Shown here piece after piece: positions 17,301 through 61,322 of a stretch of 64,000 bases of DNA; the first letter of the stretch is position 1, and each line of letters starts with the position of its first letter. The notes below the pieces were generated by a model. That model was not told the origin of the DNA and made no database searches. It saw only the letters and a program-made list of their open reading frames with translations. Source of the DNA: an uncultured virus (IMG/VR IMGVR_UViG_3300032250_000289) (taxonomy: Duplodnaviria; Heunggongvirae; Uroviricota; Caudoviricetes). Position numbers and translations under genes: made by a program. The stretch is taken from the IMG/VR virus record IMGVR_UViG_3300032250_000289; one strand, given 5' to 3'.

Positions 17301-20300
17301 TCACTAATTTCTTGTCACCAGAATTTAACCAATCTTTAAGTTCTTGGAGTTGAACTGTATCTGGCAAACCAGCCGGATTTGCTACCCAGCATACATCATA
17401 ACTGTCTGACAATTTATCAACATTAAGAGTGACGCTATTTCTATTCTTTTTAAATAACGAGTCTAATGAAGATGTTTCTGAACTGTACAAGAATGATGAA
17501 GCAGAAGATGAATTTTTATACGCATCTATAAAACTAGTTCTTTCCGTCCAAGAATTGAGTTGAGCAATTCTGGCTCCATCTTTTTTGTATACCATATTAG
17601 CATAGAAATTAATATTGTTATCACCAGCGCCTTGAGAAAGAGAATTTGGTATTTCTGTTGATAGTCCAGCTATAACTATTACCTTAGACGAACTACCAAA
17701 TAACTCTTCAGCACAGTAAATACTATTTGGTTCAAGCTGAACTGTACCTTGAGTTGTATAACTGTCTGGTATGCCAGAAGCTTGTAGTAATGATGCCCTA
17801 TCTTCAACTATTTCTGGTGTATAAAATCTTCCAGCGCTAGCTGTTGAGCCAATATTAGTATTTAAATATGTATAGTTACCACTATCATTTGACCATATAA
17901 ATTCAATACCACTATTGGGGCCGTTATTACTAAACTGAGTTATAGTACTATAAGTAGTATAGCGATTAGTTTTATAGGTTGGAAACTGTCCAGATGTTGC
18001 TGGACTTGCTGGATAGTATATCGTTTGTGGATCAGTATATCCACCAACAGTTAATAGTGGAATAGGCTCTTTACCAGCTAATGGATAAGTGCTTACAGAA
18101 ACATCGTTAGGATCACAGCACGGAGGGATATAGTTTCTAAAAACCAAAGGCCAGTTAACCGGATAAATAACAAGGTTAAATTGACAGTTAACGCATGATG
18201 ATAACCACTGCGCTCTTAAGTCGCCCTCATGAACTAATGGTAGTTCGCACTTGGTATTTAACTTACTATCTTCTGCTTCGTCGCATGGTGATGATGCGTA
18301 ATAATTTGGAAAATGCATCCTAATATCAGCAACGCCATAGCCTTTGAATTGTCGTGCGCGTATTGGACTATACGTACTATTTGTCGGCCTAAATGATGGC
18401 AGTATATTATTAAACGTTGGGATAACATCAGAGAGTGCTTCTTTAGCATTTCTAGCTGGATGCAATCTCATCTTAGAATTTAATCCACTCAACAGTTTAT
18501 TTATAATGTCATTTGATTTTTGGTAAATTCCACTCTGTTCCCAAATTGGATCATTACCAACCAATACTAAATTTCTATCTCCAAGTGATAACCAAGACGA
18601 AATATTGTTTACGACTTCATCACTAACAGCATCAACTTCTGGAGTAATGATAAACGCTAGTCCAGCATCCTGTGGTATATTTGGATCTGAAAAGTCTGTT
18701 TTTCTAAAGTTTTTATCATTCAATATTCCAGAAATATAATTATACTGTCTAATATCTGCTGGGCTACTATTGCTTTGTTGTAGATTTCCAAAGAAAGTAA
18801 ATTCTACCGCTGAATTATGTGGATAGTATTTCCTAGAGTCAAATACCCTAACTGCACCGGCATTAACATTAGACTTCCAGCTTGTTGGGATAATTCCATT
18901 TAGTTTATCAGTATTTAATGGATCGTAATATCCATTATTGATATATGCAACATTAATATCATCCCATTCATTTAAACTATCTGTGGGCGCACCAAACGCC
19001 ACAATGCTTCCATCGTCATTAACAGCGGCACTATAACCTAGTCTTGATGTTGGTAAGAATTTATCAGCAAGAAAACCCCATGTGCCAACAATTGGAATAT
19101 TTCCATAGCCATAGTTATAAATATTTTCATACTCATTAATATTTAGGTATTGTCTTACTTCGTATTTTTCTGAAGATGTTAATTCCAAGTATAGTATCTT
19201 ACCAGCATCAGCATTATTAGACCGAACCAAAGATGTATAGTAATCTAATAGGTTAGCAAATCGCCCAATGCCACCACGACTTGAACTCTTATTGGCTAGC
19301 CACGATCCGATGTTAAGGTATAATCTTGCTTTTTCTTCTGGTTTATACTCATAAACTTTACAGGCATCATTAATATACGGTGATCCAATAGCTATAACTT
19401 CAGTATTATTACTGATTGACACAGCGTGACCGAACCTGTCTGGAATTGCTTGAGCGTCAGAGGGAGAATTAATTTGTTGAATTAAATTCCATGACCCGCT
19501 TTCTTTTTCAAAAATGTATACTCTACCACCACTTGGTGGGGAATAATTAAATTCGCCTAAATTAGGATTATAATATTCGATGCCCACACCGCTGGTTAAG
19601 AATCTTAGCTGGTTATCTCGTATCAAACGTCCAGTATCTAATGTATGGTTCAATATCGTTTGACCCATTATTACCCAATCTTCAGCGGCTCCAATGTCTG
19701 GAGTAAATTCTGTAATAGCGCCAGAAGATTTCACATTATAGAAATCACGAACACCGCTAGCAAAACTATATTCTTTATAGTATTGTACGAATTGATCAAT
19801 AGCTGGCTCCAAAGCTTCTCGCCCTAGTGATCTACTATTGTCTACATAAAATCCTACTAATGGTGGAATATTATTATGTATTTTGCTAGTGTCGTATGGG
19901 AAAGCCTCAAGGAATGCTGATTTAATACCGCTTAGTATTTTTGCTGTGGTGGTTTCATTAACAAGTCCAAAATTTCTATTAATTTGCCTCTTTGTTATAA
20001 AGGCTGGCTTTGGTTCAGCAAAATCATTAGATGGTGTACTATAGTCATCATCTAGAGTTGGCTCAATTATTACTAGTTTTACATCAAAAGAAATTGGTGG
20101 ATTACTATAGTATTTATAGAGTATATCTTTATTGGAAACTGCACTTAGTATATCTCTATATGTTCTAGTCCAAGGGGCTACATCCAGTTGAATTTCTGGC
20201 TTGAATTCGTCAGTAAATATAATTAAACCAATTTGAATACCTGACGGTTTTAAATCTTCAAAAGTTCTATTCCACTTTGAGCTTGGTCCACCAACAACTA

Positions 20301-23300
20301 GCACCTGTCGTGAATCTTCTCCAAGTGATTTTATACCAGAATTAATACCCAAAGATACTGAATGGCCGAACTGGCGACCTTCCTGACCAACGTTCCAAAG
20401 TCTTTCAGTAATTGCTGGCTGTCCACCAATAATGCTTCTTTTACGCTCAGTATAATAATCTCTTAAATAGGCTTGTGGTAATGTTAATTTTGTTTCTAAA
20501 TTCCAAGAAGCTTTATCTGATCCAGCAGGCCAATTATATCCAGACGGTGGGACGTTTCTCTTATAGATAAATACTGAACCAGCTTCACTTAATGTGTAAT
20601 TAGAGTCATCGGTAACGCTCATCATCGGAGCGCCAACTGCCATTACATCATTTCTAACAGCTATAGATTTTCCAAACTGATCATTAGTATTTCTGGAATT
20701 CGAAACAATCTTTGTTCCAGAATATCCAACAAAGTTATTTGATCCATATTCAACTTCTTCAAATTCATTTGGAACACTGATAACAGTGTCTGTACCAGTT
20801 CGACCAGTAATAATTGTTTTATATGGAACATTAGGTATTAGACCGTCATATTTACGTATTCCATAGAAATTTCCACTATAACCAATCGGCGTGTTAAACC
20901 CACTTGTTTGTAAGTTTGTGTAAGTGTTAATTGCTCTAAAAATACCGCCATCAACGCAATCGCTAACTAAAGACCATTTTTTACCATGAGTAGTTACTTG
21001 TAGTTCTTTGCAGTCACCAGACGCAACACAGTCGCCGTAGCATATTGTATCAACGCCTCTGATTTCATCGTTAGCCCTTAAAGATGAATATATTAGATCG
21101 TCAACATTGATACTCTTGCCAACATTGTTGCCATTCCAACTAACTGTAGCTTGTTCGTTTAGTAAAGCATTAACTGGTGGATAGTTGATAACATATAAAT
21201 TCAAGCTATTACTATTAACTGTTCTTGTAAAGTCATCGCCCATTGTAAAGAGACTTGTAGTGTGGCTAGCGCTATCAAACAGGGCAGGAACTTGAACAAT
21301 CAATGACATTGTTTCACTTGGGAAGCGAGATGCTAGTAATGATACACCCTTAGTGTAAAGTTTGGTGGTGTTGGATAGGTTAATTCTTCCCCGTTCCGCA
21401 ATAGTAAGTAAAGATAGATTTCCGCTAGATGTTTGGTCTATGGGGAGATTCTTGGTTACTAAAGACATGTACTCTTCGTTAAACTTTGTATCTCTTCCAC
21501 CAACATGCAGTAAGAATCCACCATCATCTCCATTTGAACCATACATAATCTCTGGACCGCTACCAAAGTTATTTCCACCAATGCTTACTTTAATATATGT
21601 AGTTGAATGTAATGATAATGGAGTTGATAATCCAGACTGATGAACGGTATGTAGATTAAGATATTCATACGGCGGCTGGTAGCCGCTTGTATAAAGCTTC
21701 ATATATGGGACACCACTGTTCTCACCAACCGTGTGATATCCATAACTGTGAAGATTGATAGTTTCAACTGGTTGCTGCTGCCCGCTAGCAAACAGCGGCA
21801 TTACTTCGCTAGACGTATCAGAAAATACTAGAGCGTTTTCTAATCTTACGTGGGCGCTATGAATTTTAATTGTGGAATCATATGGTGATCCAGTTGGGTA
21901 AACAACGTCATACTGTAAAAACATGTCGTTGATGTCTTTAGAATAATATTTATGATCAAATTCAGTGATAATGTTATCTAAGTTAAAATTGGCCCAAGGC
22001 TCAGAAGTATCAAGCAGCGAATCTTTACCAAACTTACTATTAATTTTTGATATTGATCCAGATGGCTTTAAGTAGTGGATCGCCCTATTAATAAGTCCAA
22101 GATTATTCTTGCTTGGTAGATCGGGATTATCTTTATTTTTTGTATACAAACTGACAATTAGTTTTGGACCAATTTTCCCATCCGACCATACTATATTGTT
22201 TTTAGTTTCATACTCTATGATGGTGTCTACAACAAAAGCGTTTTCGTAGAAATCATAATCTCTTGGTAGGCTTTTACTTATTCTTGGATAAGCTGTGTAG
22301 AAACCACCACCACTTTCTGGAACGTTTGACAAACTAAATCTTAAGAAATCATTTTCAATCTGAGTATGATAGGATACTCCAGAGGTCATAACACTAGCTG
22401 GCAAAGTTGTATTTGTAATTTGGCTATAACCAGAACCATTATTAACAATGTGATGGACTATAAAATCTTCGCCAATACGCTTGGTTAAAGACTTAAAAGC
22501 TGGTTTGAATGAGAATATTTGAAAGTCGCCCATTTTCCAATCAGATGTATTTTCATCAACATAACTCCATAGATTAGAGCTATTAGATGACTTTACACTC
22601 TGACTAGATAAAAAGTCTGATGCTGTTATTTGTTTGTTCTGAAGATTAGGATTAGCACTTACTAAATTTGCTCCAGAATCACTAATACCAATTTCACTAA
22701 CGAACATATTCATCCCAACGCCAGAGCCATAGCAATATCCAAATATTAAATTGCTATCTCCCGTCGCCTTGATGAAAGATGATGATTCTGCTCTAAGGTT
22801 ATCGTAAGATGCTATTTCATTATCAGTATATAATTTTAACTTACGAGAATTGTTGTCATTATAAGTTAATATAACTGGGAGAGGGTATTGATAGTTAGAG
22901 TATAATAGGCTATCTTGTGCTGTTATGACATTACCAGCAGTATCTCTAGCGTATCCACATAGATATCCATTTCTATATCCTAGAGCGAATTCTAGATTTT
23001 GTCCAGCGTCCCATTTAGCAAACAGAACTCCAGAATTAAATAGATTGTAACCAACACCGCTTATTGATATATCTGGACTAAAGCGTGTATAGATCGCAAA
23101 ACCATTATCTGTATTCACACTGCCGAAGTTTATATTGGCGCTAATTCCAGACAGCCTTACAATATTATCATAGGTGTCAGAAATTTTTCCATATAATTCA
23201 TGATTTTCATAACCAGCTATAGAAGTCCAATCGATGGTTTTATAGGGGGTTGGTGATGCGAATAACGATTGATTATTAAATCTAAGGCCAATGTTACTTA

Positions 23301-25677
23301 GTTTATTATATGTTCTATTGAACTTACCACTGATTGGTACTATATTTTCACCAATCTTATCAGAAATAACGAATGGATTACTATCATAGTTAAATGTGAA
23401 GTATCCCTTTGAGAATGGAACATATAGCTGTTCATTTTTAAACGAGAGATCATATGCTAAAGGATTAAATGCTCCATTTTTAACTTTACCAGAAACACCT
23501 CTCCATCTGCGGGCATAGTTTGTTTTTAATGTTGCTGGCGTTTTGTAAGAGTGTGGAATTCCAATAATAGATGATAGTTGTGCGTATGTATCAGAAAGAG
23601 AACCAGATGATGGATAAATATGTACGGTTCTACGATTAAATTCTGTTGAAGCATTAGCAAGAGTATGTAAAGCTAGGGCATTGGACGGTTTGTACTTTAC
23701 TACTAATTTAATACTAGCGAAGGATGCACCGCTTGGAATTGGATATAGGTCTAGATATAGATTTTCAAAATATGAACTTTGAGCATAATTTTTAGATACA
23801 CCAAGAGCAACATTGTCTTTGTAAATCTTTAGGGGTATGGTGTATTCTTGGAAAGATGTAGTGTTGACAACCGGCAAACTAGTAAGAGAGTAATGATCAC
23901 CGCCATCATTTAATAGAATAGAATTATAGAACTGATCTTTATTAGATATTGATACTGTGGATATGCCCAATTCATTTGTAGGATTAAATCCAGATTGAGT
24001 TGGTATAGAACCAACGCCGCTTATGCTTTGTAAGAAACCGCCAACCGCTGAAGTGACATTTAGTATCTTATCATCGCTATAACCAACAACATCTAAACTA
24101 AAGTCATTTCCACCAATAGCTTTTTTAGCAACAATTTTTAATTCTACGCTGTCAACGGCAAAGAAATTGTCTGTTTCTGCTAGAGTTTGTAATTTTGCGG
24201 TATCTAAAGAATTATTAAGACTGCCAAAAGAAAATGCGCCATCTCTTAATTCTGTAACAGATGTTGGTGGTTCATGGCTAAATTTTAATTGAAGCTTTCC
24301 AGAATTCGATACTGGTGCGTTATAATCTAATGATATATAGTTATATTGTGATTTATCGCGCAGATCATTAGTTAATACCGCTGCGCTCCGACTTGTTAAG
24401 TTATAATTCACACCATCAGATGATTTCCACACACTGCTAGCAACTGGGTATATTCCAGCATTAAAATCTTTAAGTAGAACTTCACTAGGAAGAATATCCC
24501 TTATAATTCTATTACCGGTGGACTGAACTTCTGAATAAAAATTAAGACGATTATCTGATAGTATTCCAATACCACCACTGTTACCAATTTCAATAGCAGA
24601 AATTCGCAAGCTATTGGTTGGATTGATTGAATACTGTGAAGCCTGTGTTGATATTGGTGGAAACCCAAGAGCTAAATAGTCATTTTGACTAGCATCTGGT
24701 GAGTAAATAAATTTGGGCCTACAAGTATCTTCATATCCTTCATTAAATTCTTCTTCGAATGGATCGTCTAGACATTCAGATTTTACATCTATATTTAATG
24801 AGTAGCCACTTGGTAGACCCATTAATGGATAATCTCTATCCCAACTAAATAATAATAGGTTATTGACTTCTGGCTCTGAGATATATGTTGTATAGTAAAT
24901 TTTCTGACTTGAGTAATCGGATTCACCACGTAGTACAATATCTTTGTATTTGATGATTAGATTACCAGACGGATCTTCCAACTTAAGATTAGATAAGGTG
25001 TATCGTGGGGGCACGTTAGATTCGTAGTTGGCTACGGGCGCTGCTGCCCTAATAAATAGGTAACTTTGTTTGCCCACCTGTGCTGGTCTAGTAACTTCAA
25101 ATTTATATCTAAATTCACCATCAGTTAATATTGACTTTGGTTGAATATATGAAGCGTTATCATCAGATATAACTTTACTATTTCCTGCAATAGTAGAGAG
25201 AACGCCCTCATCAATACTAGAGTATAGATTATTTGTGTTTTGATATTTATCAACAAAGATATTGCCATTTAGATTAGCTATGATATCTCTGATGGGATAA
25301 AGTTTTTCTGTGGCTTGAAAATTTAATGGAGACTGAAATGGTCCAGCAAATTTATCAGTTATTGGCTGGCTAAAGTATGCTTCCCCTCCAACTCTAGCCC
25401 TTAAAACACCTGACATGTTTAATCTGCTAGCTATATTAGAGTTATCAAAATACTCTAAACCATTTAGCCCAAAAGATATATTGTATTTAGATGTTAGATT
25501 ACTATCACCCATTAATCTGGATGACACCAAATTAAATCTAGAATTATTTGATCTAATTTTACCAAGTGCTGAGATTTTAACAGTAGCACAAGAATACGCT
25601 GAAGCTTTAGCACTAATACTAGCTTTTCCACCAACCCTAGCTGAACTAAATACTACTGAATTAGTTAATACTGCCAT
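14344..25677 (-). CDS. giant virion protein with LamG-like domain and seven FG-GAP (integrin-alpha-like) repeats
   Basis: 3777 aa; repeats DQFGKS..VGAP, RQFGHS..VGGP, DRFGHA..IGSP, SRLGYS..FGAP, DLFGYS..VGAP, DQFGYD..VGSP, DYFGKS..VATP with GxVY/FIF strands; LFAKW...LTY...LKLY LamG-like region. Confidence 0.75.
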   Translation of the reverse strand: MAVLTNSVVFSSARVGGKASISAKASAYSCATVKISALGKIRSNNSRFNLVSSRLMGDSNLTSKYNISFGLNGLEYFDNSNIASRLNMSGVLRARVGGEAYFSQPITDKFAGPFQSPLNFQATEKLYPIRDIIANLNGNIFVDKYQNTNNLYSSIDEGVLSTIAGNSKVISDDNASYIQPKSILTDGEFRYKFEVTRPAQVGKQSYLFIRAAAPVANYESNVPPRYTLSNLKLEDPSGNLIIKYKDIVLRGESDYSSQKIYYTTYISEPEVNNLLLFSWDRDYPLMGLPSGYSLNIDVKSECLDDPFEEEFNEGYEDTCRPKFIYSPDASQNDYLALGFPPISTQASQYSINPTNSLRISAIEIGNSGGIGILSDNRLNFYSEVQSTGNRIIRDILPSEVLLKDFNAGIYPVASSVWKSSDGVNYNLTSRSAAVLTNDLRDKSQYNYISLDYNAPVSNSGKLQLKFSHEPPTSVTELRDGAFSFGSLNNSLDTAKLQTLAETDNFFAVDSVELKIVAKKAIGGNDFSLDVVGYSDDKILNVTSAVGGFLQSISGVGSIPTQSGFNPTNELGISTVSISNKDQFYNSILLNDGGDHYSLTSLPVVNTTSFQEYTIPLKIYKDNVALGVSKNYAQSSYFENLYLDLYPIPSGASFASIKLVVKYKPSNALALHTLANASTEFNRRTVHIYPSSGSLSDTYAQLSSIIGIPHSYKTPATLKTNYARRWRGVSGKVKNGAFNPLAYDLSFKNEQLYVPFSKGYFTFNYDSNPFVISDKIGENIVPISGKFNRTYNKLSNIGLRFNNQSLFASPTPYKTIDWTSIAGYENHELYGKISDTYDNIVRLSGISANINFGSVNTDNGFAIYTRFSPDISISGVGYNLFNSGVLFAKWDAGQNLEFALGYRNGYLCGYARDTAGNVITAQDSLLYSNYQYPLPVILTYNDNNSRKLKLYTDNEIASYDNLRAESSSFIKATGDSNLIFGYCYGSGVGMNMFVSEIGISDSGANLVSANPNLQNKQITASDFLSSQSVKSSNSSNLWSYVDENTSDWKMGDFQIFSFKPAFKSLTKRIGEDFIVHHIVNNGSGYSQITNTTLPASVMTSGVSYHTQIENDFLRFSLSNVPESGGGFYTAYPRISKSLPRDYDFYENAFVVDTIIEYETKNNIVWSDGKIGPKLIVSLYTKNKDNPDLPSKNNLGLINRAIHYLKPSGSISKINSKFGKDSLLDTSEPWANFNLDNIITEFDHKYYSKDINDMFLQYDVVYPTGSPYDSTIKIHSAHVRLENALVFSDTSSEVMPLFASGQQQPVETINLHSYGYHTVGENSGVPYMKLYTSGYQPPYEYLNLHTVHQSGLSTPLSLHSTTYIKVSIGGNNFGSGPEIMYGSNGDDGGFLLHVGGRDTKFNEEYMSLVTKNLPIDQTSSGNLSLLTIAERGRINLSNTTKLYTKGVSLLASRFPSETMSLIVQVPALFDSASHTTSLFTMGDDFTRTVNSNSLNLYVINYPPVNALLNEQATVSWNGNNVGKSINVDDLIYSSLRANDEIRGVDTICYGDCVASGDCKELQVTTHGKKWSLVSDCVDGGIFRAINTYTNLQTSGFNTPIGYSGNFYGIRKYDGLIPNVPYKTIITGRTGTDTVISVPNEFEEVEYGSNNFVGYSGTKIVSNSRNTNDQFGKSIAVRNDVMAVGAPMMSVTDDSNYTLSEAGSVFIYKRNVPPSGYNWPAGSDKASWNLETKLTLPQAYLRDYYTERKRSIIGGQPAITERLWNVGQEGRQFGHSVSLGINSGIKSLGEDSRQVLVVGGPSSKWNRTFEDLKPSGIQIGLIIFTDEFKPEIQLDVAPWTRTYRDILSAVSNKDILYKYYSNPPISFDVKLVIIEPTLDDDYSTPSNDFAEPKPAFITKRQINRNFGLVNETTTAKILSGIKSAFLEAFPYDTSKIHNNIPPLVGFYVDNSRSLGREALEPAIDQFVQYYKEYSFASGVRDFYNVKSSGAITEFTPDIGAAEDWVIMGQTILNHTLDTGRLIRDNQLRFLTSGVGIEYYNPNLGEFNYSPPSGGRVYIFEKESGSWNLIQQINSPSDAQAIPDRFGHAVSISNNTEVIAIGSPYINDACKVYEYKPEEKARLYLNIGSWLANKSSSRGGIGRFANLLDYYTSLVRSNNADAGKILYLELTSSEKYEVRQYLNINEYENIYNYGYGNIPIVGTWGFLADKFLPTSRLGYSAAVNDDGSIVAFGAPTDSLNEWDDINVAYINNGYYDPLNTDKLNGIIPTSWKSNVNAGAVRVFDSRKYYPHNSAVEFTFFGNLQQSNSSPADIRQYNYISGILNDKNFRKTDFSDPNIPQDAGLAFIITPEVDAVSDEVVNNISSWLSLGDRNLVLVGNDPIWEQSGIYQKSNDIINKLLSGLNSKMRLHPARNAKEALSDVIPTFNNILPSFRPTNSTYSPIRARQFKGYGVADIRMHFPNYYASSPCDEAEDSKLNTKCELPLVHEGDLRAQWLSSCVNCQFNLVIYPVNWPLVFRNYIPPCCDPNDVSVSTYPLAGKEPIPLLTVGGYTDPQTIYYPASPATSGQFPTYKTNRYTTYSTITQFSNNGPNSGIEFIWSNDSGNYTYLNTNIGSTASAGRFYTPEIVEDRASLLQASGIPDSYTTQGTVQLEPNSIYCAEELFGSSSKVIVIAGLSTEIPNSLSQGAGDNNINFYANMVYKKDGARIAQLNSWTERTSFIDAYKNSSSASSFLYSSETSSLDSLFKKNRNSVTLNVDKLSDSYDVCWVANPAGLPDTVQLQELKDWLNSGDKKLVITYDNSIDKANAMKTLFSSLGLTMEPYYIPVKDKYASSIGIGLTMTDNYISRGINNKFTIQSFDSFVDTFIPIKLGANSRSICYAGQPIEDNILITHGFWRLKSGVAKVTFPVTPGSGYKIFIDGIAETPAETLRLDVLVSNVTTKASLPAAPLSAGPYSIRDINNETNTYYEVAQDNIGYSLPVFFNGIGEVQTGSFNVQIPSGISSINMYISTNASGLSQNYNYVPKTVRLLGISGVLFPIENKVLTQEYFEQEQTGYEWAITSNGSPAGSYVIPSRFIPFSSDNTGYCPTSDCGLGGQLIEDGPVVVAQEAENVSAFTVGSTRSTITLIGDSSLLQGPFLADSNGVIPTTNYEFIRSLYPSVSFSSDNNGRQFNVLTKIVSPERGSPQKLYSMIGNSGHNLLFNIGNMSRSALSSFNDNESKYSPDYVLRPENPWEDYYTQEEIELIKIREMSKFSSEQIEYGGCSKFSGIIESKMYEDSSYKGGMPTIMKDTNYDYLDFDRYPSGYRGDLFGYSIDLYQNKLVVGAPFSAFSQDVVQPWNYYVSGGVSSGIKASYNGGAGSVYIFEKTYRGSGILGATVPWQFTQKLRPTSINVGQDLSSTSVSQSGMYLGANNYSSQELSQNTIINDQFGYDVSIDSDVIAVGSPGHDFSNYVIGGSGSFIRKSFSSEFNIPNRKVINIGESGIRYSTSSSGTVLNNGAVFMFENKIVDWPAKLQRWTLVEKVIPVGYNSRLQKNGSIIPSGTENDYFGKSVAISQSNRTDADYTLAVATPHHTFGSGANSPSLSKAGSAYVFDSMLRKQPSSFFNSNSFIQAKVYGERDQFNNPQVFIEVKNNDKPDTRYYVSGIIYTNNQGEIFLEASGQDPVSKGFIEHRPYIESIDAQYMYGTPVKQGLRLFNYGKELNTASNMNVFTNVDDTAFVYNTLGLYESAVVGFASGIPSGLGLYLDCPNPIVVSSGMNLFMASGIGINAESLPIAIRGK
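14514..14529 (-). promoter_or_regulatory. GTGTATW-N6-TAG motif copy (intragenic)
   Basis: Minus strand GTGTATAATACTTTAG in the 3' end of the 3777-aa gene, about 170 nt before the next ATG (14343). Confidence 0.5.
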
Positions 25678-25692
25678 GATATCCTTTTAATC

Positions 25693-28600
25693 CTATTCGT
25701 TTGAGAGTATTTTCCCGCTACTGTCTTTAAGATTACCACCCTCTGTTACCTTGTGATTTTTAATCATTTCGCCAACTTTATTTAATAGGTCTTCTTGAAT
25801 GCTATCTTTTAGTGACATTAAGAATGATCCACCTGTTAGATTAACATTTATATTAGTGTTGTCTAGAGCTACCTTGAATTTAGTAGTTGATAGTGTGGTA
25901 ATACTGTCCGTTAACTGTTGATTAAAAGTATTAAGAGCTTCTGATAATTTATTTACTGTTGTTGGATCTAGACTTACCGCACTCATGCTACCGCCGCCAG
26001 TTCCACCGCCAGCACCAGATTCATCTGTCATTCCACCGTAACGCAAATACTTCACTCTACCACCTTTAGCAAATCCTGACACCATGCTATCAGCACTAGC
26101 TGATCCACCATTAATAGCTTTGAGTAATGCTAAATTATTTCCTCTATTAACAGCATCTCTCCTAACTACGAATTCACCGGGAGTTAACATTGCTGGAACA
26201 GTGTCGGTGCCCCTTGGAATAAATTTGCCCATTGAAGCATAAATTAAACCACCAAGCGCCTTGCCCTGTGCTACACCGGCGGCAGCAGCTTCTTTTTCTC
26301 TACCTTGTACAACTTCTACTCCAGAAGTAGCGTAAATAGTGGCTTTTTCAAGATTCATTGTCGCTGTTTGTAATTCCATTTGGGCCATATCAACACCCAT
26401 TTGTCCAGCCTGAGATAATTCACCACCTAAAGCTCGTAGTCTACTCTTTGAAGCTTCTTCTTCTGCCGTTGTTCCGGCAGCAGCCTGCGCCGCTCTTGGA
26501 TCAGTTACTCCTCTAGCTCTTAATGCTGCCTGTGCCGATCTTTCACCTAGACCACCAGCGCCACCAATACGTTGACCATAAACATCTTGAACACCAGCCT
26601 CTTGCATTCTTTGAATATTACTATAAGCACCACCAAGAGCTTCCGCTCCAAACGCTCCCATTAAACTTTGATTACCAGTAGCGATGGCTGCTGTAGCGCC
26701 AACGGCGGCTTGTTGCTGAAAGAATTTTTCTATGTCGCCAGATATTAAAGATTCCATCGAATCTTTTTCAAGTTTAGTCTTAGCTTCAATAGTTTTAAGA
26801 TTATCTTCTTCTGCCTTGATTAAATCTCTTACTGTTTGTACATATTCTTTACTAGCTTTTGCTAAGTCTTTTTGATTTTCTGCCGTTTCAGCGCCCTTTG
26901 GACCAACTAATGCGTTATCTGTTCTTCTAGCAGTTTCAGCCGCACCAAATCCAGTAGTAATTTCTCGTCTACGTTGCTGTAGTTCAGCGATACTGCCGCT
27001 TTTCATTTCTGATAAACCTAATCGTCCAGCACCAACATTTGCTTGAGCGACTACATTGCCTCGTCTTTCCTCGTTGGTAATTGCCTTACCGCCATATTTA
27101 GCTTGAACTTCTCTACCCTCCATGCCCAACTGGAGAGCTTCTTTTTGAGCTTCTACTAAGTTTCTCTCAGCGTCAATTCTTTGTTTTGTTAAGCCCACTA
27201 ATTGCTGATTAATTTTTATTTGAGCCATCAATGCTTCTTTAGCTTGACCAATAGCATTTTCACCCAAATCTTTTAATGCTGCTTCAAAAACTGAAATATC
27301 ACCATTTGCTAATTTTTCAAGATCAATATCAGCGCCTTCTAATGACTTTTTGAAGTTATTAAACTCTTCCGAACCTTCTGCTAATCCAGAATTTTTCGTT
27401 ATAGAATTAATAACAGCTTCTTTACGCGCGTCAGCAGACTGATTTCCAGTTTCTGATAAACTACTCTTAACATCTTCAAAGATTTTTGCTGAATTTTTCT
27501 GAGCGCTATTAACTGCTTTTACATTTCCTTCAAATTTAGTAACTTGCGCTGCATCTGCTCCAAACTTAGTTAAAACACTAGAAGCCTCACCTAAAGCTGC
27601 TGTAAAATCAACATCACTAATTCCTTGAGCGGCACCAGTTACGCCAGCTTCTAATGTTGCTAAAGCCCCTTCCATTGGGCTAGCTCCAGCCTCAAGACTA
27701 TTAACAAAATTGTTAATCTTTAAAGCTGATGCGTTAGCGGCACCATTAACGGAAGAAAGTCCTAGATTCATAGCTGCAAAGGCTTTACGATTTGTTTCAA
27801 TCTCTTTGCTTAAGTTGGTAAAGGATTTTTCTAATTGTTCAGCCTGTTGTTCAAGCTGTTTAGCATTAAGATCTAATTGATCTGCCGACTGTTTATTGCC
27901 AAGATCTTTTTCTGTTTTTGCTTCTTTTTTAACTTCTTCAGCCCTTCTTCTTAATTCTTCTGGGGAGTTATCACCAAGGGCTAGACTCATTTTTGCTTTA
28001 GCTTGCTCTGGGGTGCTGCTGGACGCTATAGACTCTCTTATAGCAGCATTCATAAGTGGTTTATTCATTTCAAAAGCTTTAGCTTGAGTATCATTATTAT
28101 TTTTTGCTAAAGCGGCATTTTCTTCATCAATTTTACTATTTCTTTGAGCAGAACTTTCAACTAATCCAAATGTTAATGCTGATATAGCATTTCTTGCTGT
28201 GCCAGAACCACCCTTAGACATGTTTGCACTATTAGCAGTAATGGCTTTCTGATTAGCATTTTGTAAGTTTACCGATTCTTTGGTAACGTTTGCTATTTTT
28301 TTTAATCCTTCTGCGGCAGTAATTGTGCCATTATTAAAATCTTCCATTGCGGAAATTGCGTCTTTTTCTCCTTGCTCAAATGCTTTCTGGGTTTTTGTAG
28401 CTTGAGCTTGAGCTTGAGCCAAAGAAACAATGCTACTCATTGTTTTACCGCCAAACATTTCGCTGATTGCTTGTAATTCATTTGGAAATACATTTGCAAT
28501 TACAGTTGCTAAACCAGTACCTAGCGCAGCGCCAACTGCCGCACCTATTGGTCCAAGTAGCCCCCCGATTGCTGCTCCAGCGCTTCCCGCAACCATTCTT

Positions 28601-31600
28601 GCATTATTAGCATTAGATAGCTCGGCTTCTTGTTGTGCTGCTTTTCCAGCCCCCTCAACATCTCCAGTTTTAATTGCAGTATTTTTTCTTTGTGTTGAGT
28701 CATCAAATGATGAAACAAAAGCATTAAATACTCCTATAGCGGCAGCAGCGGCGGCGGCTGGGCCTACCAATTTCATTAATCCTTGAGATACAATACCAAC
28801 TGTTTTTAATAAACCAGAAGTCGCGCTAGTTGGAAGTGGCACTGCTTTTGATATAGATTGCGCAAAATTTGATCTTGCTTGCATTCGCCCAACGGGGTTA
28901 GCTAGTCTAGCCGCCTTTCTGTCGAGGCGACTAAGCGGACTGCCAGTAGCAGCATCAAAATCTGAATAAGATCTTCTTTTTTCCACTAAATTTCTAAGAG
29001 CGTCTCTTCTTGATCTTTTATCTGATGGTATAGTTGCTCTAGACTGAGTAATAGGGTCATAGGTTCCAATACCTTTAACGTTGACATTTTTACCTTTAGC
29101 TAAAAAGGCATCGTAATTCATAGTGTTAGCTTTTGCTGAAGCTTGATTAGCAATCTTAGGCACGCCTTTACCAGAAAGAAACTTACTCACACTTTGTTTG
29201 GTTAAAGATACCCCAAGCGCCTCCAAAGCAAATATAACACCACCAAGAGTAGTACCCATAGTTAGCAATGAATTGCCAAATTTTTCCATAGCTGAACTAT
29301 TTTCATTCAACGGCTTTATAAACGCCTGCAAAGAAGATGTTACTAAGCTAATACCTAATCCATACTGTTTTGTTGCTTGAGTTGCTTGCTGAACCACTTG
29401 AGTATTTGATCTAGTACCACCACTACTGCCGCCTCCTCCACCTCCTCCACCGCCACCAACTAAGGGGGTCGCTGCGGCGATTTGATTTAATCTTTGAAAT
29501 ACGGTTATTAATCCCTGTGACTGAGTAGTAAGTATAGTCAAGCTTTTCCCAAGATTAACAATGCTAGAATTTATATTAGCTAGACCAAAACCACCACTTG
29601 AGCTTACACCAGTGCCACTTGTTCCAGCAGCGAAGTGTTGCACAACTCCACCATTAGCATACTTACCAACCTTGTTCATACGGTTAAGATTACCATAGCC
29701 AATACTTTGAGCAGATGATCTATTAACAACAAACTCGCCGGGAGTTAATAGGGCGGGAACAGTATCAGTCCCAACTCCTCCCCCGGTTGCAAATTTTTTA
29801 ATCATTCCACCAAAATGTCTTAAAGTATACTGACCAGTACTGCCCCTAGTTTCAAATCCAGCGTTGATTGCGGCGGCTTTATTCATTCCTAATTGTGATA
29901 AAGAATATCTTCTGCCTCTTACAAAATTTTCTTTTCCTTTTTCCATAGTTTTACCATTAGTATATAATGATAAATTGGCTGGATTTTTTAATTCATCTAC
30001 TATTTGTCTTATTGTTTTTTCTTGTAATGATCCAGTTCCAGTAAGAGCAGCCGCAGATAAAGAAGCTTTAGCATCAATGAAACTGCTTGGTAGATTCTTA
30101 TAATCATCTTTTAAAACTCCAGATAAGCCATTTGGAAAATCGAATGGTCTTCCCGGATTTTCTTCAAATGGACCACCCTTAAGAACACTTAGAGTGTCTT
30201 CAAATAAATTACCTCTGGTTCCCGTATTAATGCTATTTAAAAATGCTTGTTGGGTATTAGCGTCTATTTTTTTAGCTGTCAAGCCCAAATCAAGAGCTAC
30301 GCTTGATGCGGCTTCATTGGCCGCTCCAACAATAGCATTGTTTAAAGCTTTATTAAAAGACTCGCTAGTCGGACCACTTAGTCCTTCTCTTGTTGCGTCA
30401 AATTGTCCTAATATTGGAAATTTTTCATTTAATTTTAATCCAGTTCGTTTTTCAATTTGTGGTTTAACTATAGAAAAACTTCCCGGTACAACACCTTTAT
30501 TTTCTAGCAAAGCTGCGCCAACTTCTTTTTTCCCAGAAGCTATTTTATCTATTAATCCTCCACCGGCATATTTTCTTACTCCACCACCGCTATTCATTCC
30601 AGCTAAATTACTAGCACCCAATTTCTCAACACTGCTTTTTCGTATAACAAACTCGCCGGGACTTAACATGGCGGGAACTGTATCTCTATTACCAACACCG
30701 GGAACTAAACCGCCAGCAGCAAACTTATGTACTTTTCCACCTTGATTAAAAGTGCGACCAGATCTTAATCCACCCACAACGTTACCAGCAAATGATCCAA
30801 TACCCCTAGCAAGATTGATAGCGGCCATTGCTGTTAATAATGGTAGGAGTGGCTTGATGGCATCTGCAATCTTAATCAATGCTGATGCTAGATTTAAGGC
30901 GGTATTAGCCATTATCTGAAAAGTTGATGTTTCAGTAATTCCACGAACTAAAGCTAAAAATTCTTCTTTAACTTTTGTGATACGAATAGCAAGTGCAGCT
31001 TGAGCCGTTTCAGCATCTTTAGTTAATGAATTTCCCGCATTTTGAGCAACATTCAATGCGGCCTGTGCGGTTGAGAATTGTTGTAAAAGTGGTAATACTT
31101 TACCAATCTGTCGGAAACCACCAAGCTCTTCGGCAATTCTAATAAATGTAAGATCACCCTCTCCTAATCCACTAAGAGCATCACTCAATCGCCTCACGGC
31201 CTCGTATGGGCCAACGAATTTACCATTCAAGTCAACAAGTTCAACACCAAACTGTTTTAAGAACTCAATTGTTTTGGGGCGTTGAATACGTGTGAAGATG
31301 GTTCTTAAGCCAGTACCAATGCTTTCGGCACTTTCGCGGGTTGTGGCTCGTACTGATGTAAACAAAGCTAACAATTCATTAAGATCGCCACCAGAAGCTT
31401 TAAACACACCACCAGTTCTACGAATAACGTCAATTAAGTCACCGGCTTCAACAGCAAATGCGCCAGCAACAGCGTTAATAGAACCCAACTGACCCTCTAG
31501 TGCGCCCACACCCTGCTTAAACTGAGCAAGAATAGCAATAGCACCTTCTGTAGTTTCTGATAAACTATCAAAGTTAGGGGCTAGTGCAGACTTTGCTAAA

Positions 31601-32094
31601 GCGTCTAGTGCTACTTTAGTGTCTTTAGAAGAAATACCAGCTTGAATTAAAGCTGTGGTGGTTTCTAGTAATGATTGAGAAGATACACCAAACTTTAATG
31701 ACAAGCCCGTAATGGTATCAGTTAAGCTTCTCAATTTACCAACGCTATCGCCAGTAACCTGAGATAACTTAATTAACTGTCTTTCAAAGTCGATAGAGGT
31801 TTGTACAGCATCACTAAGTGTGCTAGTAAACAAACCTACCGCTCTGGTAGCAATAGAAAATGCAGCAAAACGACGAATAGACACAGCAAATGCTTGACCC
31901 ATTCTTCCTGCTGCTGATGTAGCGTCGTTGCAGGATCGGGTGACTTGCTGTATCTGTCGTTGAGCTTGCGCAGAACCTTGAACCTGTAAATTGACATTAA
32001 TGCCATTTAACTGATTTTGGATCTGAGTTACTATTTGGCCGACATTAGTAGGAGCTTGTAGTTGTAGTTGTGCAGTCAGTACGAATCTTGACAT
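25693..32094 (-). CDS. tail tape measure protein
   Basis: 2133 aa, Ala/Gly/Lys-rich helical; N-terminal TP901-type core (SIDFERQL...ESAESIGTGLRTIFTRI...GGFRQ); hydrophobic segments; follows tail tube and chaperone genes. Confidence 0.9.
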   Translation of the reverse strand: MSRFVLTAQLQLQAPTNVGQIVTQIQNQLNGINVNLQVQGSAQAQRQIQQVTRSCNDATSAAGRMGQAFAVSIRRFAAFSIATRAVGLFTSTLSDAVQTSIDFERQLIKLSQVTGDSVGKLRSLTDTITGLSLKFGVSSQSLLETTTALIQAGISSKDTKVALDALAKSALAPNFDSLSETTEGAIAILAQFKQGVGALEGQLGSINAVAGAFAVEAGDLIDVIRRTGGVFKASGGDLNELLALFTSVRATTRESAESIGTGLRTIFTRIQRPKTIEFLKQFGVELVDLNGKFVGPYEAVRRLSDALSGLGEGDLTFIRIAEELGGFRQIGKVLPLLQQFSTAQAALNVAQNAGNSLTKDAETAQAALAIRITKVKEEFLALVRGITETSTFQIMANTALNLASALIKIADAIKPLLPLLTAMAAINLARGIGSFAGNVVGGLRSGRTFNQGGKVHKFAAGGLVPGVGNRDTVPAMLSPGEFVIRKSSVEKLGASNLAGMNSGGGVRKYAGGGLIDKIASGKKEVGAALLENKGVVPGSFSIVKPQIEKRTGLKLNEKFPILGQFDATREGLSGPTSESFNKALNNAIVGAANEAASSVALDLGLTAKKIDANTQQAFLNSINTGTRGNLFEDTLSVLKGGPFEENPGRPFDFPNGLSGVLKDDYKNLPSSFIDAKASLSAAALTGTGSLQEKTIRQIVDELKNPANLSLYTNGKTMEKGKENFVRGRRYSLSQLGMNKAAAINAGFETRGSTGQYTLRHFGGMIKKFATGGGVGTDTVPALLTPGEFVVNRSSAQSIGYGNLNRMNKVGKYANGGVVQHFAAGTSGTGVSSSGGFGLANINSSIVNLGKSLTILTTQSQGLITVFQRLNQIAAATPLVGGGGGGGGGGSSGGTRSNTQVVQQATQATKQYGLGISLVTSSLQAFIKPLNENSSAMEKFGNSLLTMGTTLGGVIFALEALGVSLTKQSVSKFLSGKGVPKIANQASAKANTMNYDAFLAKGKNVNVKGIGTYDPITQSRATIPSDKRSRRDALRNLVEKRRSYSDFDAATGSPLSRLDRKAARLANPVGRMQARSNFAQSISKAVPLPTSATSGLLKTVGIVSQGLMKLVGPAAAAAAAIGVFNAFVSSFDDSTQRKNTAIKTGDVEGAGKAAQQEAELSNANNARMVAGSAGAAIGGLLGPIGAAVGAALGTGLATVIANVFPNELQAISEMFGGKTMSSIVSLAQAQAQATKTQKAFEQGEKDAISAMEDFNNGTITAAEGLKKIANVTKESVNLQNANQKAITANSANMSKGGSGTARNAISALTFGLVESSAQRNSKIDEENAALAKNNNDTQAKAFEMNKPLMNAAIRESIASSSTPEQAKAKMSLALGDNSPEELRRRAEEVKKEAKTEKDLGNKQSADQLDLNAKQLEQQAEQLEKSFTNLSKEIETNRKAFAAMNLGLSSVNGAANASALKINNFVNSLEAGASPMEGALATLEAGVTGAAQGISDVDFTAALGEASSVLTKFGADAAQVTKFEGNVKAVNSAQKNSAKIFEDVKSSLSETGNQSADARKEAVINSITKNSGLAEGSEEFNNFKKSLEGADIDLEKLANGDISVFEAALKDLGENAIGQAKEALMAQIKINQQLVGLTKQRIDAERNLVEAQKEALQLGMEGREVQAKYGGKAITNEERRGNVVAQANVGAGRLGLSEMKSGSIAELQQRRREITTGFGAAETARRTDNALVGPKGAETAENQKDLAKASKEYVQTVRDLIKAEEDNLKTIEAKTKLEKDSMESLISGDIEKFFQQQAAVGATAAIATGNQSLMGAFGAEALGGAYSNIQRMQEAGVQDVYGQRIGGAGGLGERSAQAALRARGVTDPRAAQAAAGTTAEEEASKSRLRALGGELSQAGQMGVDMAQMELQTATMNLEKATIYATSGVEVVQGREKEAAAAGVAQGKALGGLIYASMGKFIPRGTDTVPAMLTPGEFVVRRDAVNRGNNLALLKAINGGSASADSMVSGFAKGGRVKYLRYGGMTDESGAGGGTGGGSMSAVSLDPTTVNKLSEALNTFNQQLTDSITTLSTTKFKVALDNTNINVNLTGGSFLMSLKDSIQEDLLNKVGEMIKNHKVTEGGNLKDSSGKILSNE

Positions 32095-37682: not shown

Positions 37683-38196
37683 CGGGATTTTCCACGGAGT
37701 TTAGTTTGGCTTTTATGTCGTTACAAACTTTGGTGAATGATACTCTAGTTTGATTGTAGTCGAATACTAATTTGTTAAACTGAGATAAGGTTATACTGTG
37801 GATATTATTGCCAACATCTAACACGTTGATCATTGAGTCCGGTGGTAAGTTAGCTTCTTTGGCCGATAATAGTGTTGAGTTGAGTTCAGATGATTTAACG
37901 TCACTCATGCTTAATCTAAATCCAAGCGAACTTTCGCAACCCATATTTATAACATTGTCTATAAATTCTAAAGAGTATTGTGATATTTGAATATTTGATT
38001 TATTTTTAGAATACCAATCAGCTTCTTCGTGGTGTTCATTTAAATAATTCTCTAGATCGCCCTCAAGATTAAATAGTTTAACACTATTATTGGTTTCTAT
38101 TTGAGAGCAAAAATCTAACGTTCCAAATGATAATATTTCACTATCGTTTTCAATAGAGTAGTATAAGCATTCTGATGTATAGTTATAATATTTCAT
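37672..38196 (-). CDS. putative fibre assembly chaperone (DUF4376-like C-terminus)
   Basis: Coupled to the upstream fibre gene; LDVGNNIHSITLSQFNKL...IKAKLNS resembles phage fibre-associated helical domains. Confidence 0.4.
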   Translation of the reverse strand: MKYYNYTSECLYYSIENDSEILSFGTLDFCSQIETNNSVKLFNLEGDLENYLNEHHEEADWYSKNKSNIQISQYSLEFIDNVINMGCESSLGFRLSMSDVKSSELNSTLLSAKEANLPPDSMINVLDVGNNIHSITLSQFNKLVFDYNQTRVSFTKVCNDIKAKLNSVENPDAN

Positions 38197-41100
38197 TATG
38201 TAGTAGCTCCAAGGTCACTAATTGTCCATCCTCTTGATAGCATTGTGTTTCTAGCAGCAACAACGCTACTGGTATTTGAGTAAAATCCTCTAACAAATGA
38301 ACTAACATTAGTTTGAGAAGCGTTGTCTGATAAAGTTCTTAGTAAATTATTATAGAACTGTGTTGGATAAATAGAACTTGAATCCGTTTGTAAAAATCCT
38401 GTCATATCACTAACATTTGAAAAATTCCAATTATAGACCGGACCAGCAAATCGTGTACCATAAAACATACGTCTCATGTTGATGATAGATGATGTATTTA
38501 ATGAAGAACTTAATGCTGGCCACTGTGTTAAGAAATAACAGTTCTCAAAACAGCTTGTCAGATTATTATCATCTGGTAAAATTGGGAGGTCGGAAGCGGT
38601 AACTGGAATATAACTAGAAAGATCAGGAGTGCCAAGAAAAGAAAACGCAAAGTGAGCGCCACCATCTGCTAATTTAAATTTATTTCCACATCGTTTTATG
38701 TCTCTAAGGGTTACACAGTAGTTTGAAGAAATTCCACTGAGCGAAAAAGTAAAATAACTTCCAGTTCTAACCCTTATTCTAACGTTATAGTTACCCAGTG
38801 AGTACCCATGAGTCTCGCCGACACCGGTTGAAGAGTTATATACGCTACCAGTTCCATCTCCCCAATTAATTTCTAGAACAACATCAGACATATTTCTTAG
38901 CATCTGTCTTAGCGGAAGGGATGTAAAATTTGCATTTTCAATAATAAAAGTAAATATTGTTGTGTTTTGATCGCCCCAATCGACCATGCTCCAACTCTTG
39001 GTATTAATTAAATAATTACGACCAGCAACAGCGCTACTATTAGTACTATCAAACTCAGCATTTATTGTAAATGTTACATTTGATTGTGAAGATTTTCCAC
39101 TATTTCCCCAAGCTATAAGTAGGTTGTGATAGTTAGTCTGATTCATACCGGAGAGATAGAAAATTTTGCTCATATTAGTGACTAATGCTATGTTAAGACT
39201 AGCAACATTTTGGTTAAAAGCTGTTGCGCCACTAAACATACTAGCCATAGTTGTAACTTTGCTAGTATCCCACGAAGTAATGTTTCTATTAAAACTGCTT
39301 GCTCCATTAAACATGCTGCTCATATTGGTAACGTTGCCAACATTCCAAGATGTTATATCAGCATTAAAAGCGGCTGCGTTATTAAACATATTTGTCATAT
39401 TCGTAACGCTGCTCACATTCCAAGTCGAGATATCATCATTAAATACTGTGCAGTTAGTAAACATATATGACATTTTTGTAACACTAGAAACGTTTAACGA
39501 GGATAAACTTCCAGTTAAAGATGAGCATCCTTCAAACATGCTAGAACAGTCGGTTGGCAATGTTGGAGAATCTGTAGCTGTAATAGATGTTAGATTAGCG
39601 CACCCAGCAAAAGAACCGTTACTAGCACTAAGATTTAATGGACCCCAATTACTAATAGTGAGTATTTTTAATTTATCCCCAGCATTATTAAATTCCCAGC
39701 CGTTAATAGTTCCAGTAATTGTTATAGTTCTAACGGCATTATTTGGATATGTGTGCGATCTTTGACTATATGAAGTTATTGTAGACGTTGTTCCATCGCC
39801 CCAATTTACTGTAAAGTTATATGTTCCATCTATTTTTAGTGGCAGTGAAATTTGAAAATTGGGTGATGATGCACCTAATTGTACTGGACTCCAAGTTGAA
39901 ATAAAAGAACTTGTTAAAGCAAAACTTAATGGTGTACTATATGAACCAGTTCCATAAACATTCTTAGCAGCAACTCTGAAAACATAATTATTAGTACTTA
40001 GCCCTGTTAGTGTGGCTGTTCTGGTTGTGCTAACACCGTCCGAGAATGTTACATAAGAACCATCACCCTGTGATGATAGCTTATACTGAACAACATAATC
40101 TGTTAGGACTGATCCACCATTACTAGCAGGGGTGTCCCAGCTTAACTGTACCGATGTATTATTGAGAGCAACCGCTGTAAGATTAAGTGGCGCACTTGGT
40201 AGATCAGCAGTTGTTAATGTTAAAATATCAGAAGGTACACCAGAACCAGCATTTGTTAAGGCGTGAACTTTAAAGTTATATTGGGTACTTGTATTTAGTC
40301 CAGTAACGCTTCCCGTGGTTGTATTGCCAGCTATAACTCTGAAATTTGTAAATGATGCGTCTGTACTAGCCTTATTAAACAAGTAGTAACCGCTTATTGA
40401 ACCGCCAGTTCCACCAGTATCTGATGGTGCTGTCCAAGTAAACGTTGCTGTATCTGATGCTATAGATTCTAGTGCAAAATTTCTTGGTGCGCTTGGAAGT
40501 CCTAATGTTTTTACCAATACTGTTGAGGTTGAACTATAGGGTCCAGATCCAATGCTACTAAGCGCCGCTGCTCTAACGGTATAGGTTGTACCGTTTGGTA
40601 AATCTAGAAAGTTTCCAGAAACGCCATCTGGTCCAGTTAATGTTAAACTATTGCTATATGAGAAAATTTTCTCAAATGATGAACCACCAGCTTTTGTAAA
40701 CTCAACCTTATACCCTGTTAATGAAGCTCCACCATTATCTAGAGTGTATGGTGATAATTGAATAGTATTTATTGATGGTGAAGAAATACTATTAATAGTT
40801 GTAAAACCGGGGATTGTGGCGGCTGGAGTGGCTGTTGCTGTTGAGCTATAATCACCATTAGTAATTGCATCAACGGCAGCAACTCTAAAGGTATACAGTG
40901 TACCGTTTGTTAATCCGGTAACAACCGTGGAAGAGCTAGTATCTTTATCACCAAAAGTTGAGAAATTACCAGCACCAGCACCACTATATTGAACTATATA
41001 GTCAATAATATTTAGCCCATCATTTGGAGGAGTCCAAGATAAATTGACTTTGCTATTTGCTGACGTTGCTACTAAATTTGTAGGAGCATTTGGTGGATTA

Positions 41101-54592: not shown

Positions 54593-55060
54593 TTAGGGAA
54601 GGTTGACTTCGACTTTGGCATAACCGTCTTCGTCCTTACTAGTAAGGAATCGACCAACCATTAGTGTGCCAGAACTGCCGGGGCTATCGGGACGAATGTT
54701 ACCGGCTGTTACGTGACAAGCAAAGGCTGGGTCACCAGCGACGGGTGTGCCAGTGAGAAGGTTAGTTACAACATAACCCTTGCGGAGTACTGTAACTTTG
54801 CCACCCTTCTGTACTTCATCCTTATGCTGATTAAGGTGAGTACGGGTTAAATCCTTATTTACTACGTCGTTAAGTAGGATACCTACTGGGCGACTTGCTG
54901 CTGTTACAGCGGCATATGTAACAAGGTTAACACCCTGATCCATAGCTGCGCCAGAACCGGCAGTACCGTGAACAACGACACCACCGCGTGAAGCAGTGCC
55001 AGCATTGTAAAAGAAACTGATATCGGTCTGGAATTCGTATCTATCTGATTTTAGGGCCAT
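54593..55060 (-). CDS. capsid decoration/cement protein
   Basis: 155 aa between scaffold and capsid; PVGILL...GGKVTVL..G.V.T...VGRFL..KD.DGYAKV beta-tulip-like pattern. Confidence 0.7.
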   Translation of the reverse strand: MALKSDRYEFQTDISFFYNAGTASRGGVVVHGTAGSGAAMDQGVNLVTYAAVTAASRPVGILLNDVVNKDLTRTHLNQHKDEVQKGGKVTVLRKGYVVTNLLTGTPVAGDPAFACHVTAGNIRPDSPGSSGTLMVGRFLTSKDEDGYAKVEVNLP

Positions 55061-61321: not shown

Positions 61322-61322
61322 G

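Follow-up and report, generated by a model that had tools for sequence, protein, structure and literature searches.

A repeated module of about 60 residues in an uncultured tailed virus's tape measure protein and the exchanged segment between its first two copies

The stretch of DNA analysed here, hereafter the window, comprises 64,000 nucleotides of the uncultured caudoviricete virus record IMGVR_UViG_3300032250_000289 (IMG/VR) and carries on its minus strand an open reading frame (ORF) of 2,133 amino acids (aa) which, by sequence, is a tape measure protein (TMP) of the TP901 type. Proteins of this kind set the length of the tail, plug its tube and are the first to leave it, building a channel for the DNA, and to our knowledge they are the least understood major part of long phage tails. 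The N-terminal part of the protein is recognized by PF10145 PhageMin_Tail in Pfam (aa 126-312, E = 7.3e-25, 88.5 bits against a cut-off of 33.2), by TIGR01760 tape_meas_TP901 in NCBIfam (aa 89-425, E = 9.1e-27, 94 bits against a cut-off of 28.8) and by several tape-measure PHROGs (aa 17-445). An identical protein is on record from a 132-kb contig, and its relatives are encoded on contigs of uncultured viruses that reach 173 kb. An earlier note, made from the letters of the window alone, had singled out three DTVPAxLxPGEFV motifs in this protein, each surrounded by GG motifs, and had proposed that they are processing or recombination boundaries dividing it into a ruler and an exchangeable cargo.

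All three strings were found as written, as were the GG motifs around them (positions in Table 1). The cores lie at aa 471-483 (NRDTVPAMLSPGEFVI, window 30646-30684), 777-789 (GTDTVPALLTPGEFVV, window 29728-29766) and 1964-1976 (GTDTVPAMLTPGEFVV, window 26167-26205), and the relaxed pattern D.[VIL]P..L..GE.[VIL] has no other match when the window is read in all six frames. Around each core extends a module of about 60 aa (M1, M2 and M3); its bounds were set by aligning the three copies with those of relatives, and it consists of an aromatic-A-x-G-G joint, a few residues, the sequence (G)xD-T-V-P-A-x-L-x-P-G-E-F-V-(V/I), a helix of the form G...L..MN and a second aromatic-A-x-G-G joint. While the cores are 61-89% identical to one another at the amino-acid level, identity between them at third codon positions is 0.67 for M1/M2, 0.33 for M1/M3 and 0.39 for M2/M3, which argues that the repeat has been kept by selection on the protein rather than arising by chance or recent duplication. 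Neither Pfam nor NCBIfam has a model over any of the three modules, and the only library match is to phrog_35029 (function unknown), in three stretches, the best of which is aa 452-505. An AlphaFold2 (AF2) model of the module from a 51-row alignment shows one helix only, with a pLDDT of 59.5. A resemblance to the self-cleaving motif of LexA/S24-like proteins (G-D-S-M...G-D-x-V) was dropped, there being no Pfam match at E <= 1 and no Ser/Thr in the copy found in phage lambda.

That lambda copy emerged when a profile built from 51 modules was searched against 177,635 PDB sequences at E up to 10. Two of these were matched and no others: the TMP gp16 of mycobacteriophage Douge (two copies, E = 2.1e-6) and lambda gpH at residues 731-785 (E = 5.4e-4), where the alignment takes in both aromatic-x-x-GG motifs and thus bears out a remark in the earlier note that a similar motif is familiar near the C-termini of tape measures. 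A single-sequence search added a weak match to JBD30 gp46 (residues 1017-1059, E = 1.1). Searched against 1.84 billion representative proteins, the profile found 22,223 at E <= 1e-3, 7,370 at E <= 1e-10 and 1,348 at E <= 1e-30. The best 150 of the 22,223 carry 4-10 copies and are 2,122-7,872 aa long; in the 149 of them used for detailed counts, the first copy begins at a median residue of 516, a median of 141 aa lies between the end of the last copy and the C-terminus, and 208 of 614 gaps between copies measure 800-1,200 aa. Among 50,697 records of cultured phages, 38 match M2 by tblastn, mostly in annotated tape measures; they include phages of Gordonia, Mycobacterium, Streptomyces, Clavibacter, Acinetobacter, Shewanella, Ralstonia and Nitrincola as well as virion proteins of cyanomyophages. 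A local profile run on named TMPs, with E computed per single sequence, places the module in TM4 gp17 (702-768), VWB gp47 (784-844) and S-SCSM1 gp159 (604-648). In each of these a muralytic domain lies just downstream, namely the mt3 motif of TM4, an SLT domain in VWB (959-1041) and a glucosaminidase domain in S-SCSM1 (697-816), so that a joint placed before a functional piece is a real pattern in other phages. The mt3 motif is the one that holds W853 (Piuri and Hatfull). No description of the module was found in the literature covered, which did not extend to subscription journals.

At the upper end of the size range are giant TMP-like proteins such as P0121 (7,794 aa) and P0122 (7,872 aa), with 9-10 modules and first gaps of about 900-1,250 aa each. 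The inter-module segments of six giants are mostly not similar to one another, and tandem duplication of ruler units was rejected as their origin, with only two weak paralogous segment pairs in the six proteins. At 0.15 nm per residue, a rule taken from the TM4 and P1 papers, an uncut ruler of about 7,800 aa would give a tail of more than 1 micrometre, and the uncut TMP of the window one of about 320 nm.

Closer to the present protein, 1,057 relatives were found at E <= 1e-3 among 7,998 scored candidates, and the best 120 were analysed. By profile, three module copies are present in 112 of them, four in seven (M2 or M1 being doubled) and two in one. The 112 three-copy proteins follow one plan, with an N domain of 358-451 aa (median 450), M1, a segment A of 217-631 aa, M2, a segment B of 951-1,392 aa, M3 and a C tail of 94-121 aa (about 105). 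The [FYW]xxGG motif, whose six occurrences in the TMP all lie in module flanks, is 17-25 times denser there than elsewhere across relatives (2.59 vs 0.104 per 100 aa in the 120 family proteins, 1.95 vs 0.115 in the 149 representatives). When the 336 modules of the three-copy proteins were taken by the relaxed pattern and compared, the nearest neighbour was a module from the same position in 336 of 336 cases; the triplication is therefore older than the family. Judged by these comparisons, M1, M2 and M3 are position-specific orthologues, each keeping its own variant, which would fit three different roles or partners. The N domain, with a median identity of 80% over its full length in 118 of 118 relatives, is still 45-55% identical in seven of eight giant multi-module proteins tested. 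The C-terminal tail, by its position, probably seats in the tail tip; the TMPs of siphophage tails with solved structures are visible over their last 33-42 residues only, where they form a trimer in the hub. Two related loci depart from the plan: a frame of 5,019 aa (L033:9983-25039, plus strand) has five modules, one of M1 type, one of M2 type and three of M3 type, and in another (L006:9989-17602, plus strand) M1 is followed, about 250 aa further on, by a second copy that is nearly identical to it.

The modules coincide with abrupt changes in conservation. Measured along the query against 119 relatives, identity is 0.54-0.99 over aa 1-480 and 0.65 over aa 481-510, 0.08-0.30 over aa 511-750, 0.91 at M2, 0.01-0.48 over aa 841-1110, 0.16-0.75 in the ruler and 0.81 at M3. 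The drop starts right after M1 and ends at M2: in the closest relatives identity is at least 0.9 up to about aa 500, 0.05-0.4 over aa 521-760 and 0.85-0.95 at M2, and pairwise profiles switch at about aa 505-520 and 745-765. BLASTP matches segment A in only 49 of the 118 relatives. The history of this segment does not follow that of its flanks. Counting identical residues per 100 of the query segment, the closest relatives over the N domain, segment B and the C tail (P0002-P0005) score 92-98, 52-61 and 54-84, respectively, but 11-16 in segment A, while the best relatives in segment A (P0009 at 65 and P0010 at 59) score 75-77 in the N domain and 2-28 in segment B. Of the 6,903 pairs that 118 proteins make up, N-domain identity reaches 90% or more in 357, and in 252 of these segment A is below 30%; conversely, 151 pairs are at least 60% identical in segment A, yet 97 of them are below 85% in the N domain. 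The Spearman correlation of pairwise identities is 0.04 between N and A and 0.01 between A and B, compared with 0.31 between N and B; in the closest relatives the ruler body co-varies with the N domain. These comparisons support the conclusion that segment A evolves, and is exchanged, independently of its flanks.

The same boundaries are visible in the DNA. In blastn comparisons with 34 related loci, similarity is confined to the N domain plus M1, to one island each at M2 and M3 and to a few late-ruler matches. M2 stands isolated, with 19 high-scoring segment pairs at aa 781-810 and none on either side, and segment A has a single one, at aa 631-660. Conserved DNA around the cassette is thus limited to the modules, and such DNA is what homologous exchange needs. 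The view of the modules as boundaries of conservation and exchange is accordingly supported for M1 and M2. The earlier note had proposed to test whether the sequence between modules is hypervariable and enzymatic; the stretch between M1 and M2 is variable, and nothing enzymatic was recognized there, by Pfam or by fold. The second variable stretch, after M2, is another low-identity and low-occupancy region, with a G-run at about aa 878-890 and hydrophobic runs.

Table 1. Features of the tape measure gene and of other genes in the window (residue numbers in the second column are those of the TMP)
Feature	Residues	Window	Strand	Remarks
TMP gene		25693..32094	minus	uninterrupted frame, 2,133 aa + stop
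N domain	1-448	30751..32094	minus	most conserved part, fixed length in relatives
M1	449-513	30556..30750	minus	FNQGG (449), FAAGG (458), core, helix, YAGGG (509)
Segment A	514-758	29821..30555	minus	variable exchanged cassette between M1 and M2
Segment A core domain	531-682	30049..30504	minus	G.lFE ... RPFDF.nGL ... [DE]AK
M2	759-816	29647..29820	minus	(R)HFGG (759), FATGG (768), core, helix, YANGG (812)
Second variable stretch	817-1110	28765..29646	minus	poly-Gly linker and hydrophobic segments
Ruler body	1111-1943	26266..28764	minus	moderately conserved, identity 0.16-0.75
M3	1944-2021	26032..26265	minus	ALGG (1946), core, helix, FAKGG (2008), (L)RYGG (2017)
C-terminal tail	2022-2133	25696..26031	minus	constant length in relatives
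3,777-aa ORF		14344-25677	minus	directly downstream of TMP; FG-GAP repeats (Pfam, aa 1656-1705 of this ORF)
Cement protein		54593-55060	minus	upstream of TMP
Terminase		58708-60690	minus	upstream of TMP
ClpP-type prohead protease		60683-61354	minus	upstream of TMP

Unrelated domains swapped into one slot were considered and rejected, as all 118 versions fall into one cluster by single-linkage BLASTP, and an iterated local hidden Markov model (HMM) finds the core domain of segment A in 76 of the 120 family proteins and 65 of the 149 representatives. Segment A has no match in Pfam; the AF2 model of its core (19-row alignment, pLDDT 67.2, pTM 0.52), which has a confident helical part, has none at E <= 0.001 in PDB (Foldseek) or in BFVD, the best VIA wide hit (Z 4.2) spans a helical hairpin, with no nuclease among the fold matches, and the ESM Atlas gave no usable match. 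Nucleases of the PD-(D/E)xK type carry the signature E ... D ... (D/E)xK on an alpha-beta-beta-beta-alpha-beta core, and the FE...FDF...[DE]xK pattern of segment A had made a nuclease a candidate. This lead was dropped as unsupported, because the pattern is present in only 72 of 145 domain matches (D.TR taking its place in the others) and does not lie on strands in the AF2 model, which has helices and no strands at the motif positions (pLDDT 57-69). Enzymes between the modules of other multi-module proteins were likewise sought, in 13 giants chosen from the 149 representatives for a length below 5,000 aa, and Pfam recognized nothing catalytic in them: 11 matched PhageMin_Tail, one matched EF-hand weakly and one matched M78 below the threshold. 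Our guess is that segment A is a host-facing or exclusion-evading part of an ejected protein.

A comparison with lambda gpH, a TMP that is known to be cut, is instructive. The gpH copy aligns with the module in both joints (FATGG and YATGG), the GEFV turn and the helix, lies at a similar distance from the C-terminus (68 aa follow it, as against 112 aa after M3) and comes after a hydrophobic and then glycine-rich stretch (gpH 691-745) such as is found here ahead of M1. On the other hand, gpH has one copy rather than three, its core (YEPAGIVHRGEFV) lacks the D-T-V-P start, and it is a TMP of the lambda family while the N domain here is of the TP901 type. On sequence and position, M3 is the counterpart of the gpH copy, in the canonical C-proximal place. 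In lambda, gpH is converted to gpH* (~78 kDa) by loss of a ~14 kDa fragment, gpHC, which is cut off after tail assembly and remains in the tail tip; residues ~690-817 are unresolved in virions, and the paper describes both the site and the protease as unknown (PMC12617516). Judged by these masses, the cut would fall at about residue 710-730, inside the glycine-rich residues 701-745 and a short way upstream of the module.

The TMPs of Douge (PDB 8zdo, copies at 963-1011 and 1412-1459) and TM4 resemble the present one in having copies far from the C-terminus, that of TM4 ahead of the mt3 peptidoglycan hydrolase motif. They differ from it in their core variants (SDSMLARVSNGEFI, SDSILARIANGEFI) and in that their inserts are muralytic, whereas segment A has no recognizable function. 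The Douge copies are not resolved in the structure, only 1658-1699 having been built. In TM4, the tail becomes about 20 nm shorter when an insert of 114 aa is taken out (Piuri and Hatfull), from which it follows that inserts count in the uncut ruler during assembly. T5 and JBD30 share a logic in which the TMP is split near its C-terminal end into a channel-forming body and a small hub-seated piece. T5 pb2 is cut after R1127 (PMC10038345), and the 43 C-terminal residues of pb2* lodge between hub subunits after opening; for JBD30, a cut at 1066 is a prediction of the authors, as is a ‘hook’ (1022-1066) that would hold the TMP in the baseplate and that overlaps the weak module match at 1017-1059.

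The explanation that we favour, and hold to be rather probable, is that the modules are joints between segments of the ruler, that M3 marks a cut or hinge, that M1 and M2 bracket an exchanged insert and that module DNA anchors recombination. The three motifs are old copies of a single module of about 60 aa, each specific to its position; this module is the same as that at residues 731-785 of lambda gpH and is made up of an aromatic-x-x-GG joint, a DTVPAxLxPGEFV strand-turn, a short helix ending in L..MN and a second joint. M3 is the canonical copy, about 105 aa before the C-terminus as in lambda, and at this copy at least a maturation cut or a hinge may be expected; M1 and M2 are extra copies bracketing the segment A insert. 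The modules probably lack an autonomous fold and would take shape only in the assembled tail, where we infer that each copy would engage a partner of its own. The low pLDDT of the AF2 model of the module and the disorder of its lambda counterpart in virions fit such a shape acquired only with a partner or at a given step. Finally, the modules probably serve also as anchors for the homologous recombination that swaps the segment between them, a role suggested by their conservation in DNA amid diverged sequence.

Several observations weigh against this explanation. The local profile does not find the module in the TMPs of TP901-1, HK97 (gp16), Mu (gp42) and SPP1 (gp18), and it is therefore dispensable for TMP function in general. 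In T5 pb2, which alone among TMPs has had its cut mapped, no module is detectable by HMM, even at E up to 1000, around R1127 or over residues 1085-1127, nor did the PDB profile search find one. The core D-T is unlikely to have a conserved catalytic role since the lambda copy does without it. The Douge paper, which deals with a TMP that has two internal copies, contains no terms for denaturing gel electrophoresis (SDS-PAGE), mass spectrometry or cleavage, and cutting at the modules of this protein would be argued by analogy with lambda and, weakly, with T5. Moreover, a module marks just one end, the near one, of the variable stretch at aa 817-1110, so that modules are not the sole limits of variation.

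Other explanations have to be set against these facts. The TMP might, as the earlier note had considered possible, be a processed polyprotein, cut at all three modules after tail assembly into an N piece of ~48 kDa, M1 plus segment A of ~32 kDa, M2 plus the ruler of ~125 kDa and M3 plus the C tail of ~20 kDa, which would be ejected separately ahead of the DNA. The cut in lambda, within about 20 residues upstream of its module, speaks for it, as does the statement by Piuri and Hatfull that TMPs are commonly processed and can lose even an internal segment; the giants, too, some with as many as 10 modules, would call for tails of micrometre length if they were used as uncut rulers. In T5, the sequence that follows R1127 (AEGGMMY...HGTEVVTPMV) aligns with the start of M3 (ALGGLIY...RGTDTVPAML), although the alignment, 30 columns by BLASTP, has an E of 0.4 and is not significant. 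One related locus (L027:9980-18046, plus strand) has an in-frame TAG 40 aa after M1 with a GTG at once after it, giving a 557-aa ORF with the N domain and M1 and a separate second ORF, but this split, which may be natural, a case of read-through or an error, is found in 1 of 34 related loci. Against the polyprotein, the TM4 deletion implies that inserts are counted in a ruler that is still uncut. A search for a residue pattern of a scissile site common to M1, M2 and M3 found none. Tail proteases may be of the JAB/NlpC type, as in lambda gpK; neither this type nor any other tail-associated protease domain was found among the 36 other ORFs of the window, where the only protease is the ClpP-type prohead enzyme, though a host protease might do the cutting. 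On balance we regard cutting at all three modules as unlikely.

The modules could also act without any cut, as hooks that each, ahead of ejection or in its course, latch onto a ring of the tail, be it hub, distal tail protein, tube or terminator, in the manner of the 43 C-terminal residues of T5 pb2* and of the predicted JBD30 hook. This is a possibility that we doubt somewhat. The type-specific conservation of M1, M2 and M3 fits three partners, the low-confidence model of the monomer would be compatible with folding upon binding, and the JBD30 hook overlaps a module match; but that match is weak and the hook is itself a prediction of its authors, the T5 hook has no sequence likeness to the module, the module region is disordered in lambda virions, and M1 and M2 lie near the N-terminal, head-proximal end, distant from the hub. 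That the modules are passive linkers, conserved spacers left by an ancient duplication or fusion of TMP units, with segment A variable for want of constraint, appears very improbable. It would agree with the general lack of paralogy between the inter-module segments of the six giants and with the many TMPs that work without a module. However, identity of the cores to the query is 81-91% throughout the family while third codon positions between copies have diverged, the module has been kept from lambda to actinophages and cyanomyophages, and each position has its own variant in all 336 cases, which together indicate strong purifying selection rather than neutrality; segment A also keeps a conserved core domain and is thus constrained as well.

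On the boldest reading, the module would be a portable ‘cut-and-dock’ signal across tailed phages, and multi-module TMPs would be polyproteins that are cut beside each copy and ejected in order. We think this reading improbable. The cutter would be a protease, perhaps that of the host, or the assembled tail itself; the tail lumen would be loaded with a defined series of proteins ejected ahead of the DNA; and the M1-M2 cassette would be a swappable, host-specific effector which, for example, contacts an inner-membrane factor or evades superinfection exclusion.

Whatever the mechanism, a module that lies beside the lambda cut, occurs in more than 22,000 protein clusters and has no curated family offers a concrete handle for experiments. 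A plan of three modules with one exchanged cassette means that the TMP has a built-in slot for variable content, a feature that bears on host range, on the resistance given by exclusion proteins directed at the TMP and on the engineering of phages with tail cargo. A puzzle of their own is posed by the largest proteins, which reach 10 modules and 7,800 residues and are hard to reconcile with simple uncut rulers.

The genes around the TMP conform to a tail block on one strand (minus), with head genes upstream and large ORFs in the position of tip and fibre genes downstream. The 3,777-aa ORF has no PHROG match, and in Pfam it is recognized by its FG-GAP repeats only; it is followed by ORFs of 621, 191, 1,622 and 1,219 aa which the libraries searched do not recognize. 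Judged by position, these five ORFs presumably encode the tip and fibres of the tail. None of the libraries searched recognized a tube, chaperone or hub gene in the window. Among the structural genes, a protein of 1,614 aa (window 38196-43040, minus strand) has four fibronectin type III and three DUF285 stretches and may be a surface decoration or an adhesin. At the far end, a gene for GDP-mannose 4,6-dehydratase (window 62275-63360, minus strand; Pfam E = 1.4e-106), a phage-borne sugar-nucleotide gene, is adjoined by those for an ERCC4-type nuclease (61323-61814) and the ClpP-type prohead protease.

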